64,000 nt of DNA from Squalus acanthias (GCA_030390025.1 CM059430.1:44702001-44766000), one strand, 5' to 3'; shown: positions 7,253 through 36,586, numbered from the stretch's first letter. The notes: generated from the letters alone by a model not told the origin. Translations and numbers: made by a program.

Positions 7253-8467
7253 TTACACGAATCTAGCATGGATGAGTGCATCCCTTGCCTGACAGCCAGC
7301 AATGTGGTTGCCTGCTGCTGGATTGGCCACATCCGACCCCGCAAGGAGTCGCTCCCTGTCCTCATCCTCTTCCTCTTCCTCCGAGGGGGCTCTGTGCTGA
7401 GCCACTTGTTCATTCGGCAGCACTAAGCCGCGTTGCTGTGCGATGTTGTGCTGGGCACAGCAGACCATGACGATTCTGGACACCCTGGCTGGTGCATACT
7501 ACAAGGCTCCTCCAGATCTGTCTAGGCATCAGAAGCACATTTTGAGCAAGCCGATGGTTTGCTCGATGATGCTTCTGGTGGAAATGTGGCTCGAATTGTA
7601 CCGCTCCTCAGCATCGTTTAATGGCCTCCTCATCGGTGCCATAAGCCACTTTTTCAGGGGATAGCCCTCGTCACCAAGAAGCCATCCGGAAAGTTGGTTT
7701 GGCGGATGGAAGAGCTGAGGCACAGTAGACTGGCGCAGGATGAAGGAGTCATGGCAACTGCCAGGGTACTTTGCGCAAATATGCATGATGATCTTCCTGT
7801 GGTTACACACCAGCTGGACGTTCAAGGAGTGGAATCCCTTGCAGTTGACAAATACAGCTGGGTTGTGATGGGGTGCCCTAATGGCTACATGTGTGCAGTC
7901 AATGACGCCCTGCACCATTGGCAAGCCTGCCATATTGGCCAACCGCACGCACTGTCACACTTGGGCCATCCGTGGAGAAGTGGATGTAATTGTGCACCTT
8001 TGCAAAGAGGGCATCGGTGACCTGCGTGATGCAGGTGTTTGCGGCCGACTGGGAGATTCCGCTGATGTCTGCAGCTGATCCCTGGGAGGAGCCCGAAGCA
8101 AAGAAGTTGAGTGCAGTGGTGACTTTGACAGCCACTGGTAAGGAGTGTCCACATGCTCTTCTGGGCTCCAGGTGTTGGTGCCGCATTGTGCAGATGTCAG
8201 CGACTACGTCTCTCGAAAATCTCGGCCTCCTTTGACACTGCTGCTCAGTCATGCTGAGGAAGCTGATCCTCTGCCTGTAAACCCTGTGTTGGGGGTATCT
8301 CCTGCAATGAGGTGCAGCCCTGCGCTGAGGCCCTCCACCCTGTGCATCATCAGGTGGGTGAGGAGGAGGTTGGCGCTCCTGGTGCTGGTGCTGCTGTTGT
8401 GGCACTGCCGCAGCTGCTCTTCCTCCGAATCTGATGACCAGGATGAGAGGATATAAATGTTTCCCAT
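7253..8467 (-). pseudogene. Harbinger (HARBI1-like) DDE transposase, frameshifted
   Basis: [36 protein letters not shown] and [10 protein letters not shown] spread over several frames. Confidence 0.93.
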
Positions 8468-11612: not shown

Positions 11613-11664
11613 AAGCTATTCATAGAGTCATAGTCATATGACTCTATGACTCGATGAATAGCTT
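11613..11664. repeat. Near-perfect 52-bp palindrome
   Basis: aagctattcatagagtcatagtcat / atgactctatgactcgatgaatagctt, one mismatch and one 2-nt gap. Confidence 0.85.
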
Positions 11665-14694: not shown

Positions 14695-15981
14695 CCAATA
14701 CAGGTTAAAGGGCTGAAAGAAGAAAAACTCTCCGCAGCTGAGCTAAAAAGATCACTGGCCCTATCAACAGCTGAGGTAAAATCTCATCCCCTGTATTTTC
14801 AACTGCCCCATAAATGGGGCAAAGCCAACCAGAGCAGACAAGGTCTGTGACAATCCAGAAGTTGACTGATTCGGGGTACTGGTAAGCAATAGGCACTGAG
14901 CTGCTCATCCTGCCCCTTCTTCCTGAGATCAGTCAGCTGGGAGCAATCCAATGCCTCTTGATTTTCTAGATAAATGCCTAAAAATTCCTATTCCAAAGAG
15001 AAGGTAGGCTGGTTCTAACCAGAAGGATCCATCACAGTGTGGCTGGACTTTTTAGTCTTCTTAGAATGTTTCTTAGAGCTTTGACTTTGTCTTAAGTTTA
15101 CCATTTTGTTACTTCTAGGCTACAGAATTTGACTAGGCAAGCTGAAGAAAATTGGCAATTGAACATAGTAGGGAGGCACAATTTGGGCAATTGTCATGCC
15201 CATTTGCAACAGAAAATTGACTGTCACACATCTTGCAGTGGTTTCTTCAAATTAAAAGATGTCTCACTAGATCAAAGCGGTAGAGTTCTGTTAAGGAGAA
15301 GTCACCTCTGCTGAACTTATATGCAAAGGGTCATCTAGAAGACGGAGAATACCATATAAACCAACCTATCAAGAGTTAAAAGCTGTACTTATCTCTCTTT
15401 AAGTTTGCTAAAATCTGTACCTATTTCTCCAGAAGTGATGCTGGGAGCTTAGACAACCTTCTCAATTCTGGGGAAAGGAACTGAACTATTGGGGTGAATT
15501 TTAACTTGCACGTGGGTTTGGGAGCGGGTGGGGGGTTAATAGCATGGAAACTGACAACACGTCAGGAAACCGGCTCCAACCTGGCAACTTCCACATTTAA
15601 CTGCAGCACGTTAGGCTGCGTGCGAGCAATCCCCTCGGGAGAGACGGGTTGTCAATTTTAATATGTTAATCGCTCAATTACAGCGATATTGACATGGCTT
15701 TTGGAATTTAACTGTGGGTGCACAGGTTTCCCGGGCTTCCTGGAACTCGCCAGTGAAAGCAAGGCAAGAACACAGTGGCAATTGAAGGGGCTGAAGACAT
15801 GACAGGGAAATATGCCAATAAGTACTGAAACCTCACAGCTGATTTCTTGCCTAATTGTACGAAAGGCTTTGTTCACAGTACTTGTGCTGAGAGGTTACTT
15901 TCATAATGTTAGAAGTGCCTTTCACAACTTGAGGTTTGTAAGCCTGATCTCCACTTTGGAGCTGTGATCTATCAGATCAGC

Positions 15982-17125
15982 ATGGGTGCCGCTTATGCTG
16001 TTTTACTTTGGACCTCAGATGAGGACCAAGATGACCAGCAGCATCAACAGCACCAGCAGCAGCAGGAAGACCATCAGCAGCAGAAGCAGCACCAGCCTGT
16101 TCCTCACAGACCTACCGCTCCACAGGAGAAAGGGGATGAGCTGAGAGGTGCAGCTTGCAGGAGGCCATACCTGCAACACAGGCAGAGGATCAGCTTCCTG
16201 GATATGTCGGAACACCAGTGTCTCAGGAGGCTCAGGGTCTCGCGTCAGGTGGTGGCAGACATTTGCAGCCTGCTGGAGCAAGACCTGCTGCCAACTGGAC
16301 CTGGTGGCCACGCTTTACCAGTGGCTGTCAAAGTCACCACCGCCCTCAACTTCTTTGCCTCTGGCTCCTTCCAGGGCTCTGCCGGAGACATTTGCAGGAT
16401 CTTGCAGTCAGGCAGCCAGAAGACTGATGGCTTCTTTGCCAGGTCTGGCAATTATGTCAACTTTGCCAGCGATGATGCCAGTGGGCGCTCGGCTTTGCGG
16501 CCCTGGCTGGCTTCCCACAGGTGCAGGGCATCATCGACTGTACGCATGTGGCAATTAAAGCACCCCAGGTCACCCAGGAGTATTCATCAATCGCAAGGGC
16601 TTCACTCCATAAATGTGCAGCTGGTGTGCAACCACAAAAAGATGTATATGCAGGTATGTGCAAGATTCCCAGACAGCTGCTATAATGCTTTCTTCCTGCA
16701 GCAGTCCACCCTCCCTGATCTCTTCACACCTCGAAGCAGACTTACCAGCTGGAGTCAAGGGATACCCACTTAAAATGTGGCTGATGACACCTGTGAGGAA
16801 CCCAACCAATGAGGCCCAATGAAAGCCATACGATGTGTCATTGAGGAAACCATCGCTTCAGGTGCCTGGACAGATCTGGAGACGCCCTTCAGTACGCAGC
16901 AGCCAGGATCTCCAGAATGGTCGTGGTGTGCTGCGCTCTGCACTCTGCACAACATTGCACAGCAGTGAGGTTTGGACCTGCAGGAGGAACAAGGCACAGA
17001 GCACGGAGCCTCTTCAGATGATTCCGAGGAGGAAAAGGAGCAGGAAATGGAACGTGATGTGGCCAAGGCACCAGCAGTGGTGCACATTGGTGCCCGGGAT
17101 GCCCTCATTATTGCAAGGTTCACTT
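15982..17125 (+). pseudogene. Harbinger DDE transposase, frameshifted, Q-rich N-terminus
   Basis: SDEDQDDQQHQQ..., [41 protein letters not shown]. Confidence 0.9.
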
Positions 17126-26535: not shown

Positions 26536-27097
26536 CCCTCTTTAACTAATTGAGACATTTTTGTCTCAAAATATATCAATGATACTTGTTGCTCTCCCAT
26601 GGGGGGGGGGGGCGATTTCCCAGCCCCGAGGAGGCGGGACAGTTGGCAAAAATCGCAAAAAGTGAGGGCGGGTTCGGAACCCGCCTCTGCGCAATTTTGC
26701 CGGAGGCAAGTTTGATGGGTGCGATTCAGTCCCGCCTCCATCAGCCGGGAGAGGTAGTTAAGACCCTTAAATAGTCGTATAATCCTATTTTGACAGGCCT
26801 ATTATTTTGCCACATTTTGTGCGTGTTGCACGACCCTCCTAAACCACGCCAGCTAATCCTGGCGGGTTGACAAGTGGGTGGCCTCCTCACAGCTGCAGCT
26901 CCACCATTAAAACGGAGCTTTCATCAGGGAGCAGTTGCAGGAGGCAGAACGTTTGTTCACAGGTCTTTCAGCACTTTTAGCAGGCCTACCGACGTCAGAG
27001 GTGCTGCAGCTTCTATTTCTCAACTGTGGGACCTCCTTGGAAGACCCTCTCCCAGCTTGGACTGAGCGCTTCCCCAACGGAGGTATCTGCCAGCAGC

Positions 27098-27611
27098 ATG
27101 GGAACCATTTATTTCCTTTCACCATGGACCTCAGATTCGGATGAGGAGCAGCCACGGCAGCAGCAGAACCAGGCAGCTCAGCAGCAACAGCAGCAGGAGC
27201 CCCACCCTCCTGCTCACCCACCTGATGCTGCACAGGGCAGAAGGCATCAGCGCATGGAAGCACGTCGCCACAGGAGATACCCCCAATACAGGGATTACAG
27301 ACAGAGGATGAGCTACCTCAACATGACTGAGCAGCAGTGCCAAAGGAGGCTGAGACTTTCACGAGAGATAGTGGCTGACATCTGTGCACTGCTGCACCAA
27401 CACCTGGAGCCCAGAGGAGCGGGTAGACACCCCTTACCAGCGGCTGTCAAAGACACCACTGCACTCAACTTTTTTGCCTCAGGCTCCTTCCAGGGATCAT
27501 CAACAGACATCAGCGGCATCTCCTAGTCGGCCGCCCACAGTTGCATCACGCAGGTTACCGATGCCCTTTTCGCCAAGGCGCACAATTACATCCATTTCTC
27601 AAGGGATCAAG
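27098..27611 (+). pseudogene. Harbinger transposase, 5' half
   Basis: SDSDEEQ...[14 protein letters not shown]...[13 protein letters not shown]. Confidence 0.9.
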
Positions 27612-27696
27612 ATGCGGAGATGCCGGAGTTGGACTGGGGTGGACAAAAGTGAGAAGTCGCACAACACCAGGTTATAGTCCAACAGTTTTATTTGAA

Positions 27697-27736
27697 ATCA
27701 CAAGCTTTCGGAGCTGCTGCCCCTTCGTCAGGTGAA
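27697..27736 (-). ncRNA. Minimal type-I hammerhead ribozyme in the PLE 3' pLTR
   Basis: Minus strand tcac-CTGACGA-a-ggggc-agca-gctcc-GAAA-gctt-gtga. Confidence 0.8.
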
Positions 27737-28054
27737 GTGAAGGAATACGAATCGGCAAAGCATATATAGACAGAGAACAATGCATGTGTAGCGTACAATG
27801 TCAGACGACTACATTTAATCCTTCTGACTGCCTTTTGTCACACCTCGGAAGAGAAACAATCAGGTCAGCCAGGAAGGCACCACATCAAAGACATAGCAAG
27901 ATACAACTGAGACAATGAGGTGGGGTCACAGGGGGTCTAATGTGTCAAATGCTGCAGTCTGTATGGAAAACCATAAACTTTAAAATTTTTACTTTTTTTT
28001 TAACTGGAAATCACATCTGTGAACAAGCCAACGACGACTCGAGTCTGGATGACT

Positions 28055-29845
28055 CTACGTCATGTAGCGTGACATGAACCCAAGACCCCGGTTGAGGCCG
28101 TCCTCATGAGTGCGGAACTTGGCTATCAGTTTCTGCTCGATGATTTTGCGTTGTCGTGTGTCTCGAAGGCCGCCTTGGAGAACGCTTACCCGCAGATCCG
28201 AGGCTGAATGTCCTTGACTGCTGAAGTGTTCCCCGACTGGGAGGTAACAATCTTGCCTGGCGATTGTTGCGCAGTGTCCGTTCATACGTTGTCTCAGTGT
28301 CTGCATGGTCTCGCCGATGTACCATGCTCTGGTGCATCCTTTCCTGCAACGTATGAGGTAGACAACGTTGGCCGAGTCACATGAGTATGTACCATGTACC
28401 TGGTGGGTAGTGTCCTCACGTGTGATGATGGTATCTGTGTTGATGATCTGGCATGTCTTGCAGAGGTTGCCGTGGCAGGGTTGTGTGGTGTCGTGGTCGC
28501 TGTTCTCCTGAAAGCTGGGTAATTTGCTGCGAACGATGGTACTTCTGAGGTTAGGTGGCTGTTTGAAGGCGAGTAGTGGAGGCGTGGGGATGGCTTTAGC
28601 GAGGTGTTCGTTGTCATCGATGACATGTTGAAGGCTGCGAAGAACATGGCGTAGTTTCTCCACTCCGGGGAAGTACTGGACGACGTAGGGTACCCTGTTG
28701 GTTGTGTCCCGTGTTCGCCTTCTGAGGAGGTCTATGTGATTTTTCGCTGTGGCCCGTCAGAACTGTCGATCGATGAGTCGAGCGTCATATCCCGTTCTTA
28801 CGAGGGTGTCTTTCAGCATCCGTAGGTGTCCATCGCGTTCCTCCTCGTCTGAGCAGATCCTGTGTATTCGCAGGGCTTGTCCATAGGGGATGGCTTCTTT
28901 AACGTGGTTAGGGTGGAAGCTGGAGAAGTGGAGCATCGTGAGGTTGCCCGTGGGCTTGCGGTAGAGTGAAGTGCTGAGGTGTCCGTCATTGATGGAGATT
29001 CGTGTGTCCAGGAATGAAACCGATTCTGAGGAGTAGTCCATGGTGAGTTTGATGGTGGGATGGAACTTGTTGATGTTATCGTGTAGTCTTTTCAGTGATC
29101 CTTCACCGTGGGTCCAAAGGAAGAAAATGTCGTCGATGTATCTGGTGTACAGCGTTGGCTGGAGGTCCTGTGCAGCGAAGAAGTCTTGCTCGAACTTGTG
29201 CATGAAGATGTTGGCGTATTGGGGTGCGAATTTGGTCCCCATGGCTGTTCCGTGTGTTTGGGTAAAAAAATGTTTGTCGAAGGTGAAGACATTGTGGTCA
29301 AGGATGAAGCGGATGAGTTGTAGGATGGCGTCTGGAGATTGGCTGTTGTTGGTGTTGAGTACTGAGGCTGTCGCAGCGATGCCGTCATCGTGGGGGATAC
29401 TGGTGTAGAGTGCCGATACATCCATCGTGGCGAGGAGTGTTCCTGGTTCAACTGGTCCGTGGGTGCTGAGTTTCTGTAAGAAGTCTGTGGTGTCGCGGCA
29501 GAAGCTGGGGGTTCCCTGTACGATGGGTTTCAGGATGCCCTCGACGTATCCAGAGAGGTTCTCACACAGGGTTCCATTGCCTGATACGATAGGACGTCCG
29601 GGTGTGTTGGCTTTGTGTATCTTTGGGAGGCAGTAGAAGTCTCCCACACGGGGAGTACGTGGGATGAGAGCGCGTAGGATGCTTTGAAGGTCTGGATCGA
29701 AGGTCTTGATCAGTCTATTGACTTGGCAGGTGTGTTCTTTGGTCGGATCTGCAGGTAACTGTCTATAGTGTTCCTGGTTGTCCAGTTGTCGGTATGCTTC
29801 TTTGCAATAGTCCATTCTGTTCTGTATGACGATGGCTCCTCCTTT
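28055..29845 (-). pseudogene. PLE reverse transcriptase + GIY-YIG endonuclease, 5'-truncated, premature stop
   Basis: KGGAIV, LPKIHK, GRPIVS, MDVSALYTSI, GTAMG and RYIDDIF; stop at ~28757; PCHGNLCKTC linker; VVYLIRC...WYIGET; GLN end. Confidence 0.93.
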
Positions 29846-31060
29846 GCCAACATCTTCATGCACAAGTTTGAGCAAGACTTCTTCGCTGCACAGGACCTCC
29901 AGCCAACGCTGTACACCAGATACATCAATGACATTTTCTTCCTTTGGACCCATGGCGAAGGATCACTGAAAAGACTACACGATAACATCAACAAGTTCCA
30001 TCCCACCATCAAACTCACCATGGACTACTCCTCAGAATCGGTTTCATTCCTGGACACACGAATCTCCATCAAAGACGGACACCTCAGCACTTCACTCTAC
30101 CGCAAGCCCACGGACAACCTCACGATGCTCCACTTCTCCAGCTTCCACCCTAACCACGTTAAAGAAGCCATCCCCTATGGACAAGCCCTGCGAATACACA
30201 GGATCTGCTCAGACGAGGAGGAACGCGATGGACACCTACGGACGCTGAAAGACGCCCTTGTAAGAACGGGATATGACGCTCGACTCATCGATCGACAGTT
30301 CCGACGGGCCACAGCGAAAAATCGCATAGACCTCCTCAGAAGGCAAACACAGGACACAACCAACAGGGTACCCTACGTCGTCCAGTACTTCCCCGGAGCG
30401 GAGAAACTACGCCATGTTCTTCGCAGCCTTCAACATGTCATTGATGACGATGAACACCTCGCTAAGGCCATCCCCACGCCTCCACTACTCGCCTTCAAAC
30501 AGCCACCTAACCTCAGAAGTACCATCGTTCGCAGCAAATTACCCAGCTTTCAGGAGAACAGTGACCACGACACCACACAACCCTGCCACGGCAACCTCTG
30601 CAAGACATGCCAGATCATCAACACAGATACCATCATCACACGTGAGGACACTACCCACCAGGTACATGGTACATACTCATGTGACTCGGCCAACGTTGTC
30701 TACCTCATACATTGCAGGAAAGGATGCACCAGAGCATGGTACATCGGCGAGACCATGCAGACACTGAGACAACGTATGAACGGACACCGCGCAACAATCG
30801 CCAGGCAGGATTGTTACCTCCCAGTCGGGGAACACTTCAGCAGTCAAGGACATTCAGCCTCGGATCTGCGGGTAAGCGTTCTCCAAGGCGGCCTTCGAGA
30901 CACACGACAACGCAAAATTATCGAGCAGAAACTGATAGCCAAGTTCCGCACCCATGAGGACGGCCTCAACCGGGATCTTGGGTTCATGTCACGCTACATG
31001 ACGTCGAGTCATCCAGACTCGAGTCGTCGTTGGCTTGTTCACAGATGTGATTTCCAGTAA
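29846..31060 (+). pseudogene. PLE RT C-terminal half + GIY-YIG endonuclease; open frame but 5'-truncated
   Basis: ANIFMHKFE, RYINDIF (catalytic Asp changed to Asn), CxxxxCxxC linker, VVYLIHC...WYIGET...RQRMNGH...EHF...IEQKLI...GLN. Confidence 0.93.
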
Positions 31061-31324
31061 AAAAAAAAGTAAAAATTTTAAAGTTTATGGTTTTCCATAC
31101 AGACTGCAGCATTTGACACATTAGACCCCCTGTGACCCCACCTCATTGTCTCAGTTGTATCTTGCTATGTCTTTGATGTGGTGCCTTCCTGGCTGACCTG
31201 ATTGTTTCTCTGCCGAGGTGTGATGAAAGGCAGTCAGAAGGATTAAATGTAGTCGTCTGTCATTGTACGCTACACATGCATTGTTCTCTGTCTATATATG
31301 CTTTGTCGATTCGTATTCCTTCAC

Positions 31325-31364
31325 TTCACCTGATGAAGGGGCAGCAGCTCCGAAAGCTTGTGAT
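31325..31364 (+). ncRNA. Minimal type-I hammerhead ribozyme in the PLE 3' pLTR
   Basis: tcac-CTGATGA-a-ggggc-agca-gctcc-GAAA-gctt-gtga; palindromic AAGCTT stem III; AATAAA follows at ~31369. Confidence 0.82.
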
Positions 31365-31425
31365 TTCAAATAAAATTGTTGGACTATAACCTGGTGTTGT
31401 GCGACTTCTCACTCACGGGATCAAG

Positions 31426-32150
31426 TAAGTGTAACCGTGCATTCAGTTGGCTTTGCAAATATCGCAGGCTTGCCAATGGTGCAGGGCGTCATAGACTGCA
31501 CACATGTGGCCCTTAGGACATCCCATCAAAACCCAGCTATCTTTGTCAACCGCAAGGGCTTCCACTCCCTCAACATACAGCTGGTGTGTAACCACAAGAA
31601 GGAGATTTTGCATGTTTGCGCCAAAATCTGTGGCATTTGCCATGACTCTCTCATCCTGCGGAACTCTAGTGATCCTCTGCTCTTCAATCCACCAAACCAA
31701 CTTAACGGATGGCTCCTTGGTGACAAGGGCTAACCCCTGAAGAAGTGGCTAATGACGCCGATCAGGAGGCCAACTAACAAGGCTGAGGAGCGCTACAACA
31801 GCAGCGACATTTCGACCAGGTCCATCATCGAGCAAACCATTGGCTTGCTGAAGATGCGATTCTGATGCCTTGACAGATCAGGTGGCGCCCTGCAGTATTC
31901 AGCAGCCAGGGTCTCCAGAATGGTCGTGGTTTGCTGTGCACTGCACAACATGGAACAGCGTCGTGGCTTACAGCTTCCTGATGAGCAAGTGGCTCAGTTC
32001 ATAGCCTCCTCAAATGTGGAGGAGGAGGAGGAGGAGTAGGAGTAGGAGGAGAACCGAGCAGCGACGTATCGACCAGCAGCAGTGGCAGCACATGAGCACA
32101 TGGCTGCCCGTGATGCAAGGGATGCACTCATCCTGGCCAGATTTGCATAG
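31426..32150 (+). pseudogene. Harbinger transposase, 3' half
   Basis: [13 protein letters not shown] and LLGDKG followed by a stop; IEQTIGLLK; acidic tail. Confidence 0.9.
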
Positions 32151-34030: not shown

Positions 34031-34645
34031 ACAACAACAACTTTCATTTATACTGTGTCTTTAACACATTAAAGCGTCCCAAGGCGCTTCACAGGAATGT
34101 TATCAAACAAAATTTGACACTGAGCCACATAAGGAGATATTAAGCAAAAAGCTTGGTCAAAGAGGTAGGTTTTTATGAATGTCTTAAAAAGGAGGAGAGC
34201 GCGCTAGAGGGTCAGAGAGGGAACCTGTGTTGCATTGTACAATATTACTCAGCCAAAAAATTAGAATTGTAATCTCACATAATATTAGAATACGCTTTAT
34301 ATAAGTGGTTTGCATCATAAGAAAATGATGAACAGTATGACAATCAAAAGGTTAAGTTGGGAGGGAATTCCAGAGCTTAGGGCCTAGGCAGCTGAAGGCA
34401 TGGCTATCAATGGTAGAACGATTAAAATCGGGGATGCGCAAAAGGACAGAATTGAAGGAGCACAGAGATCTCGGAGGGTTGTAGGGCTGGAGGAGGGTTA
34501 CAGAGATAAGGAGGGGCAAGACCATAAAAGTATTTGAAAACAAGGATGAGAATTTTAAAAATCGAGCCATAGGCAGACCGGGAGCCAACGTAGGTCAGGG
34601 AGCACAGGGATGATGGGCGAACGGGACTTGGTACGAGTTAGGACT
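34031..34645 (-). mobile_element. L2 LINE 3' end interrupted by a templated insertion
   Basis: Collinear with 19942-20430 except for 34224-34359. Confidence 0.88.
34224..34359 (-). repeat. Inverted copy of unique sequence 35252-35390
   Basis: Reverse-complement match over ~135 bp with a few substitutions and one small indel. Confidence 0.93.
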
Positions 34646-36586
34646 TCCATTCTAAATGTTTACAGAGGCAGTTTCAAATGTTAAATGTTGACTTAAAGCA
34701 TGACCAAAAATCATGACAAGTTGAACATAAAAGTGTGCATTTACAAGGGCCCCGATTTTACGGTCAGTGGCGAAGGAACGGAATCTGCATGAATTAAATA
34801 TGTGTTAATGGTGTTTTATTGGTTGAATTGTAATGCAAAATTAAATATCAACTTTGTTCTATACTACTCTGTGCCATCACAAACTGCAATGACAGAATTT
34901 ACCCCAAATGATATAAAAAATTGTCAATAAAACTATTTTTACACCAGTGAAATTACAATCTAAAACATACATTAGACACATGACTACTATGTACATAGAC
35001 ACAAAAAACAGATAAAGGATTTGCATATTCTAAAATGTAGAAAAGCAAACTGAAAGTTTCTCAAATATTAAAATGCTTTTACTTACTCAGTGTTAAAAAT
35101 GAAAGTGCAAATATTATACACCAATATAAACCAACCTTCCTGAAATCTGCTTTTAATTTTGTTCAACTGTGCAAATGAATAATTTTATAATATATATACA
35201 CTTCATCATGAGGCTATACAATTACTTTTTTCTGTGGCATCCAGTCTGAATCAACGTAACCTTTTGATTGTCATACTGTTCGTCATTTTCTTACGATGCA
35301 AACCACTTATAGACTAAAGCGTATTCTAATATTATGTGAGATTACAATTCTAATTTTTTGGCTGAGTAATATTGTACAATGCAACACAGGATCTGACTGC
35401 ATACGACTCTCAGGCGCTTGTTACTTTCTCTTTCTCTAATTTTCATATTTCATGTTTTTTCCAGCGGTTGGCTCCATCCTATTACATACCTGTCCATTTC
35501 CTTTTGTGTCAATAACACTCTTGTGCGGCTTTGCAGCTCAGTGGTGCTTACATGTCTCTTCACTTCCACCCTATATTGTTTAAAAACAAGCAGCACTCTG
35601 TATTTTTGCAGCCATGTCAGTAATGTAGCAAATCAAATGCTTCATTTAAAAGTACAGATTGAAAAAGTAATTGTGTCTTGAACTGCACAAAAAGTTTCCA
35701 ACCCTTTCCCTTGTTTAAAACAAATAAAAGCTATAAAAAAAACAGCCGCCAACAGTATTAGTTTAAAAAATCTTCATTTGAAAACATTGTACGATCTAAA
35801 GGATAAGTGAAGAAAACTAGCTCAATTTATATATCGTTCTCTAGCCTGTGAGCCATACAGTTGTCCCACTAAATTTTAAAATCCAACCATTTTAAGAGAG
35901 CTACAAAAATCAAAACACATCGTTAAAATATTTGTTTATATTCTGTCATCTAATGTTTAAATTTTGTGCTTTTCTATGATAATTATATTGACGTAGTGTG
36001 CATTAACTACACTTCTATTTGTAAACTACTGTGCAACCACTCATCTGAGTTGCATATTATTCTGTTCTTTAAGCATTTCAGTCAGCTGCTATATCTGTCT
36101 GTGATCATCACAGTAGTACTTCACTGCTATTAATGTTGCAACTACGCTCAGTCTCCACAGTTATAATGGTATCAGTTACCATTTTTTGTTGCAGAATTGT
36201 TGTATAAAATAACATGCTGCGAAGAGACTTAAAGACTGTAATTCAATCTCGACTTCTGATGTTCATAAACCACTCAAGCTGTGCTCTCATGGTTGATGAT
36301 GTCATCAGAACAACAAAATTGAAATACAACATCCAGTATTCATAGAATCGTAGAAATTACAGCACAGAAGGAGGTCTTTGAACCTATTGCACCGTGCAGC
36401 TGCTGTCTCTCCAGCTGGGGCTATCTACTTCTACATATTTTTCATCCATTCTTTAAAATAAAAAGTTTATTAAACTGTACATACTATAATTAAGCAGTAT
36501 TGAGCCATCACACACAGCCTGCCAAGGATCTGAGCATTGTTAGGCTATCGTGACAGTCCCAGTACGGTACATATGGAAGCTTAGTA

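Follow-up and report, generated by a model that had tools for sequence, protein, structure and literature searches.

A head-to-head Penelope-like insertion in Squalus acanthias, typical of its family and probably made by priming from both ends of one staggered cut

Structure of the insertion and its target site

The window analysed here is a stretch of 64,000 nucleotides from Squalus acanthias (GCA_030390025.1 CM059430.1:44702001-44766000), in which positions 27598-31425 hold a palindromic insertion of an endonuclease-bearing, high-copy family of Penelope-like elements. Alignment to a natural full-length copy bore out what an earlier note on this DNA had described, namely two 5'-truncated copies placed back to back, about 2.2 kb on the minus strand and about 1.57 kb on the plus strand, which meet at about 29846 (Table 1). 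Self-comparison likewise recovered the proposed inverted-repeat layout, with arms at 27648-29215 and 29846-31413 (1,568 nt each, 35 mismatches, 0 gaps, 97.8% identity) and 630 nt between them, and the 36-nt tail at 27612-27647 was indeed confined to the left copy. Relative to the full-length copy, the left copy comprises residues 297-892 of the open reading frame (ORF), with one internal stop, and the right copy residues 507-892. Both halves of the insertion are dead.

Table 1. Coordinates of the insertion, its parts and the interrupted host transposon in the window.
Feature	Position	Strand	Remarks
Host Harbinger-type DNA transposon, 5' part, interrupted	27098..27597	+	collinear with copy at 7260-8467
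Left target-site duplication, 14 nt	27598..27611	.	its final base could equally be the next base of the element
Left 5'-truncated copy, tailed arm	27612..29846	-	2,235 nt; aligned to natural full-length copy
Tail, 36 nt, left arm only	27612..27647	-	
Predicted minimal hammerhead motif, left arm (CUGANGA, stem II, GAAA, palindromic stem III)	27698..27735	-	approximate boundaries
Partial ORF, residues 297-892	28055..29845	-	reverse transcriptase, CX4CxxC linker, GIY-YIG; stop at 28757-28759
Spacer, 630 nt, left-copy portion absent from right copy	29216..29845	-	
Head-to-head junction	29846..29846	.	1 base common to both copies
Right 5'-truncated copy, untailed arm	29846..31413	+	1,568 nt
TATA-like run and initiator-like motif	31293..31327	+	predicted start site 31323 (mirror 27738)
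Predicted minimal hammerhead motif, right arm	31326..31363	+	
Right target-site duplication, 14 nt	31412..31425	.	1 mismatch at 31416; first 2 bases are the arm's last 2
Host Harbinger-type DNA transposon, continuation	31426..32143	+	PF13359 DDE_Tnp_4, E 2.8e-11

The 14-bp target-site duplication with one mismatch that had been proposed to surround both copies was confirmed against related copies of the host transposon. A genome search with the right flank gave 3,854 candidates, of which 40 copies were scored, and the duplicated sequence is single in 9/9 of the related host copies (the nine best besides the one in the window); because it is single there, it represents a true target duplication and a single insertion event. 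At the mismatch, the left version of the base is found in 8/9 of these copies and the right version in 0/9. Since the mismatch makes the start of the right duplication repeat the last four bases of the arm, it may reflect a stutter during priming instead of a later mutation. The true stagger of the cut may be anywhere from 11 to 14 nt, because the edges of the duplication coincide with element bases on both sides. The interrupted transposon carries a PF13359 domain, which we take to mark it as Harbinger-type; copies of this type lie in the window at 7260-8467 (-), 15978-17045 (+) and 27094-32143 (+), with mutual identities of 66-83%.

The earlier note had also remarked that the right copy stops at a sequence resembling the target. 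The likeness is real, with an 8-nt match between the empty site and the element end, but the junction itself uses only 2 nt, in a different register, and the likeness does not account for where the arm ends. The right arm closes at the ordinary untailed end of the family and not at a site-specific stop; a target-directed end was rejected, as nearly all untailed arms stop within one common stretch of about 10 nt, independently of the target.

Identity and motifs of the element

A natural copy of the family (L009) has a 3,120-nt unit with an intact ORF of 892 amino acids. The left arm matches the Pfam profiles of the reverse transcriptase (PF00078, E 3.9e-9) and of GIY-YIG (PF01541, E 1.6e-4; 22.3 bits, just below the cut-off of 22.6). 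The right arm has an open frame for residues 507-892, whose native stop is lost at 31005; it gave no Pfam match at E<=0.001, and its protein is 97.9% identical to the intact family protein. A single ORF with a reverse transcriptase followed by GIY-YIG at the C terminus, the arrangement of endonuclease-bearing Penelope-like elements, is found in both L009 and the left arm. Translations read by eye contain the CCHH motif and two cysteines within GIY-YIG and the DKG motif ahead of the reverse transcriptase, as these motifs are defined in the available part of PMC8557442. The linker between reverse transcriptase and endonuclease carries CX4CxxC in both arms and in L009, which fits the CX2-5CxxC motif that, according to the same source, marks the Neptune/Nematis clades and is missing in Penelope/Poseidon (PMC8557442). 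From its motifs, the family appears to be of the Neptune/Nematis type; the Penelope/Poseidon clade, where the linker lacks this motif, was rejected.

L009 and other copies form a partial tandem of the pseudo-long-terminal-repeat kind, with a period of 3,120 nt and an upstream partial copy, while the window locus, both of whose arms are truncated, has no such upstream copy. In full-length copies the tail sequence is the end of the 5' leader, one base before the ATG of the ORF. Close to the 3' end of each arm a hammerhead is predicted from sequence: its core boxes, stems I and II (folded) and an extra base after position 9 can be seen, in line with the minimal hammerhead described in the accessible text of PMC4209133, and an Rfam search of the region gave no match at E<=5. 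The initiator-like base sits about 24 nt after the TATA-like run (L031-L110), and the 5' ends of the family gather at this predicted start site: 24/102 arms begin exactly there, 42/102 within -3 to +4 and 65/102 within 15 nt. Most insertions of the family are mini-palindromes of 90+127 nt, which likely mark the transcription start. At three loci (L067, L089 and L137) one arm has its 3' end interrupted by a later insertion, each time at the same position (+55 to +58 relative to the predicted start), which may be a preferred target.

Frequency of the layout in the family

For a 23-mer from the 3' end of the element, the genome contains 7,157 exact matches; on one contig (C1), the first 100 of these fell into 82 clusters, of which the first 80 were fetched. 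The count of inverted copies and of their arm lengths that the earlier note had put forward as a check was run on these 80 position-ordered loci: 49 hold a head-to-head pair with 3' ends facing outwards, and the pairs are mostly tiny. After correction for the two chances that a pair has to match the search word (16/49 pairs match on both arms), the share of pairs is estimated at about half. The note had treated the layout as surprising, which did not hold, since it is the usual form of the family (49/80 loci) and has already been described in print. Both arms exceed 1 kb at 3/80 loci (L081, L092 and L110), which extrapolates, with a wide error, to about 200 genome-wide. A second set was limited to copies with a length of at least about 2.2 kb (38 fetched, 36 kept once 2 near-duplicates were dropped); of these, 15/36 have a directly adjacent inverted partner, the longest partner being one of 2.4 kb at L134. 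The palindrome at this last locus (L134:2351-7638) is bigger than that of the window, with arms of 2.4 and 2.9 kb that are 0.9% apart. Sizes form a continuous range, and the window insertion is an ordinary example from its long end.

Duplications of at least 9 nt surround 48/53 pairs, compared with 2/150 shuffled flank pairings, and their lengths peak at 12-13 nt (24 of the 48 found). Automatic calls of arm ends were off in at least 12/53 pairs, and junctions were judged by eye. The flanks are mostly unique sequence and not microsatellite. Older relatives, 80-92% identical, are also head-to-head (L036:7466-8282, L069:5714-7285, L092:3660-4441 and L154:5330-6926), and the same layout in such diverged relatives means that the habit is old. 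Inverted fragments of another kind, internal and short of the 3' end, lie at the 5' end of some long copies (L133:5758-5978, L145:4021-4062 and L170:3034-3238) and look more like an internal second priming of the L1 type. Identical insertion structures at neighbouring places (L041/L042, L150/L152, L149/L156 and L163/L165) are likely segmental duplications or uncollapsed haplotypes.

Divergence of the two arms

The 35 differences between the arms of the window are derived on the left in 15 cases, on the right in 19 and on both in 1, and 22 are CpG transitions. The divergence between the arms is 2.2%, against 1.8-2.3% to the nearest other copies; being as far apart as separate copies, the arms have aged independently, each having drifted by about 1.1% since insertion, mostly through CpG decay. 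Homogenisation by gene conversion is not needed to explain them, as they differ as much as separate copies do. The 13 non-CpG differences include 2 A-to-G changes and 1 T-to-C change, with no signature of editing or excess of A-to-G.

Arms that are no closer to one another (2.2%) than either is to its nearest relatives (1.8-2.3%) could also be left by two independent insertions, or by a later rearrangement that brought two copies back to back. We hold this to be very improbable, as one duplication surrounds both arms with none at the junction, the layout recurs at 49/80 loci, and the arms have a rare haplotype in common. Both carry a combination at four sites that is seen in 0 of the other 24 copies listed, and this shared combination, together with the one duplication, speaks against the possibility raised in the earlier note that the arms belong to different subfamilies with separate duplications. 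The least probable explanation, with a negligible chance in our judgement, is that the palindrome is a fold-back made by the assembly. An artefact would suit the finding that no contig piece runs over the junction among the matches listed. It would not suit the even split of the differences (15, 19 and 1, with their 22 CpG transitions), the unequal arms, the one-sided tail or the true duplication, with the expected host sequence on either side of the insertion, and an assembly fold-back was rejected on these sequence features.

Tail distribution, arm lengths and source of the arms

The tail was scored on 51 pairs, with the window and the duplicate L042 excluded and three side pairs included; the status of two borderline arms (L068 and L048) was set by hand. 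Among the 48 scorable pairs (3 of 51 were unscorable), 47 combine a tailed with an untailed arm (p 1.7e-13 against 50%), 1 is untailed on both arms and 0 are tailed on both. The long set behaves in the same manner, with one of each in 10/11 scorable pairs. The lengths of the two arms are also related: both arms extend past the point 150 nt upstream of the start site in 7 pairs, one does in 2 and neither in 42, so that 5' extents within pairs are correlated (Fisher p 3e-7; Spearman 0.44). With the window and L042 included, the longer arm is the untailed one in 16 pairs and the tailed one in 10, and in 22 the arms are about equal. At the junctions, 1-3 bases are shared in 19/51 pairs, or 1-5 in 22/51 when BLAST ends are used.

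One way to obtain two arms from a single source is fold-back self-priming, proposed for inverted Penelope-like units in the available part of PMC3846280, where a complementary DNA (cDNA) turns at its 5'-truncation point and copies itself into the second arm. Such a process would yield identical arms from one source, the bases often shared at junctions (1-3 in 19/51) are compatible with it, and the tailed arm of the window is the longer one, as predicted for a tailed cDNA. Nevertheless, the untailed arm is longer in 16/26 pairs with unequal 5' ends, and this 16:10 split weakens a simple fold-back, as a cDNA that lacks the tail offers no template for one. The homology at the window junction is just 1 base, and a second, precise trimming step would be needed to remove the tail, all of which leaves fold-back improbable.

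Sequence variants point to a common source for the two arms of a pair. Shared minor alleles per site amount to 0.023 within pairs and to 0.0024 +/- 0.001 in 500 shuffles, a difference of about nine times; in 16 long pairs the arms differ at 45/545 informative sites, where about 189 would be expected; and at a site with a genome-wide split of 51:64, 10/11 pairs are concordant. The arms of L045, L139, L151 and L135 look as if they came from two haplotypes, that is, from two units of a tandem source or from two RNAs.

Proposed mechanism

We consider it probable that the window holds one family-typical head-to-head insertion, made when both ends of a staggered cut primed on one RNA. The enzyme would cut both strands about 12-13 nt apart. 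One end would prime at the downstream start site, giving the tailed arm, and the other about 36 nt upstream, giving the untailed arm, both at the same repeat-ORF junction, which for the window would be the 3' junction of a read-through RNA. Both ends would then copy the same 3' region, with an early stop after 2.2 and 1.57 kb; here the trailing enzyme would need to displace the leading cDNA, a step that is assumed. Finally, the cDNA ends would be joined head to head via 1 shared base and repaired. In short pairs, arms starting at the initiator-like base would represent run-off to the 5' end of the RNA from the first junction, and long arms such as those of the window would derive from the 3' junction. 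According to the accessible text of PMC11167929, an element of the anole cuts and extends both strands in vitro, starting at two positions of the RNA, one at either edge of the tail. Whether double priming on one RNA, with start sites 36 nt apart, one for each end of a cut with a 12-13-nt stagger, and displacement of the leading cDNA, is moreover the default route of the family is, to us, evenly balanced. If this is true, inverted repeats, one-sided tails and the mini-palindromes of 90+127 nt that end at the predicted transcription start would all follow from one rule.

The suggestion of the earlier note that both DNA ends primed near the same RNA junction is supported, by inference. Its addition that this happened possibly on two RNAs fares less well, given that the tail is almost strictly one of each, that the 5' extents are correlated and that a rare haplotype is common to the arms. 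Two RNAs that come from the same source locus and are held in one asymmetric enzyme dimer, so that each DNA end copies its own RNA from one start site, are in our view an unlikely alternative. One template would not have to serve two enzymes, the anole protein is predicted to form a dimer (PMC11167929, in the part available), and both the shared sublineage and the occasional discordant sites would be explained. Against this, an extra rule is required for the use of the same junction, 7/9 long-arm pairs being long on both sides, and only 1/15 partners of copies of at least 2.2 kb starts at the predicted start site, which is the commonest 5' end of the family.

Several points weigh against priming of both ends on one RNA. 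The remaining 31/80 loci hold one arm or another arrangement, and the one-of-each tail has exceptions in L071 and in L154, tailed on both arms, whose partner is only 90% identical and perhaps older. Among the shorter pairs, the arms of L045, L058, L135, L139, L149 and L151 show 3-7 informative differences, suggesting that templates are sometimes mixed, and in their variants two RNAs of one source locus would look the same as a single RNA. The window itself is the sole discordant pair of 11 at the 51:64 site, and its right arm carries a second allele that is common in other sublineages, without their linked alleles. This discordance more likely stems from a recurrent mutation or a short patch of conversion, a second, closely related RNA being a weaker alternative. 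In vitro, the start site was the same for both strands, and the available part of the same report mentions no palindromic product (PMC11167929). Displacement of the leading cDNA by these enzymes was not found in the literature examined. Lastly, the contigs over 29300-31800 are dominated by other copies of the family and cannot be assigned to this one, with no bridging piece among the matches listed. An origin of the arms in different subfamilies was rejected, as linked alleles missing from the right arm are present in nearly all of the 11 comparable copies with the right-arm allele.

Comparison with known systems

In the parts of the literature available to us, a typical Penelope unit comes with a duplication, a neighbouring inverted repeat and a one-sided tail, head-to-head being the most frequent arrangement (PMC3846280), and the same traits are listed for Penelope-like elements in PMC8969392. 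Inverted 5'-truncated copies longer than the terminal repeat have already been described (PMC3846280, PMC8557442). Pen2a_Av and others resemble the window in the head-to-head copy, the 30-40 bp tail at one end and the single duplication, and also have TATA and initiator motifs in the terminal repeat and a reverse transcriptase with C-terminal GIY-YIG (PMC3846280, PMC8557442); the optional tail of 30-40 nt, often at one end, corresponds to the 36 nt of the window and to the one-sided tail in 47/48 scorable pairs. Unlike in these examples, both arms of the window are 5'-truncated, there is no upstream direct repeat, and the 1.57-kb inverted arm covers the endonuclease. Duplications measure 12-13 nt in the window's family and 8-10 nt in the rotifer examples (PMC3846280), and Neptune/Nematis elements differ in their flanks, those of the present family being mostly unique sequence and not microsatellite (PMC8557442).

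The anole element, PAc, a Poseidon of Anolis carolinensis, likewise has two classes of 3' ends about 36 nt apart at start sites that bound the tail, and a hammerhead in the terminal repeat, that of the window being predicted (PMC11167929, part of text). Its start sites are within the ORF, at about 111-118 nt, whereas in the present family the tail is part of the leader, with its end at the ATG or a few bases beyond, and PAc belongs to the Penelope/Poseidon clade, without the linker motif that the window's family has. The two segments made by L1 twin priming usually show barely any overlap. LINE-1 twin priming (Ostertag and Kazazian 2001), as given in the available part of PMC10760644, also involves two primings at one target, a join by microhomology and one duplication, and the window agrees in its 1 shared base and single duplication. 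In LINE-1 an inverted 5' part is joined to the 3' part, whereas in the window both primings would lie near the same RNA junction, so that the 3' region is doubled; both arms contain the same 3' 1,568 nt, with no poly(A) at the end of either.

Literature on Penelope and twin priming held nothing on such units, judged by title or abstract, and a search on Penelope, hammerhead, shark and inverted found nothing. From 2023 on, PMC11167929 was the only mechanistic paper found; the part available of bioRxiv 10.64898/2026.07.22.740005 holds nothing further on inverted units. A rule of one RNA and two sites is stated in no paper found, subscription papers and supplements being outside the search.

Hairpin potential and other features of the window

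If the insertion were transcribed through, the arms would form a duplex of 1.57 kb that includes 24 perfect runs of at least 21 nt, a putative source of small RNAs or substrate of editing, as the earlier note had put forward; pairing of this kind is open to many sister loci too. In 20 other long frames of the window only transposon Pfam domains were found and no host gene, a search in which short exons would be missed. The window also contains a 1.17-kb unit at 34221-35393, with 142-nt inverted ends (95% alike), which lies inside another repeat and resembles a non-autonomous DNA transposon or a further head-to-head insertion, and a 52-nt near-perfect palindrome at 11613-11664.

Significance for the family

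The locus itself is one dead insertion out of a few hundred estimated for its size class and matters little. The counts made on its family bear on how inverted Penelope structures form, at a point where the origin of tandem and inverted structures is called still unexplained (PMC8557442, in the part available) and the steps after priming are left unvalidated (PMC11167929, likewise), and they lend modest support to a double-priming model. Predictions that could be tested in the existing in vitro system follow from the one-of-each tail rule and from the correlation between arm lengths.

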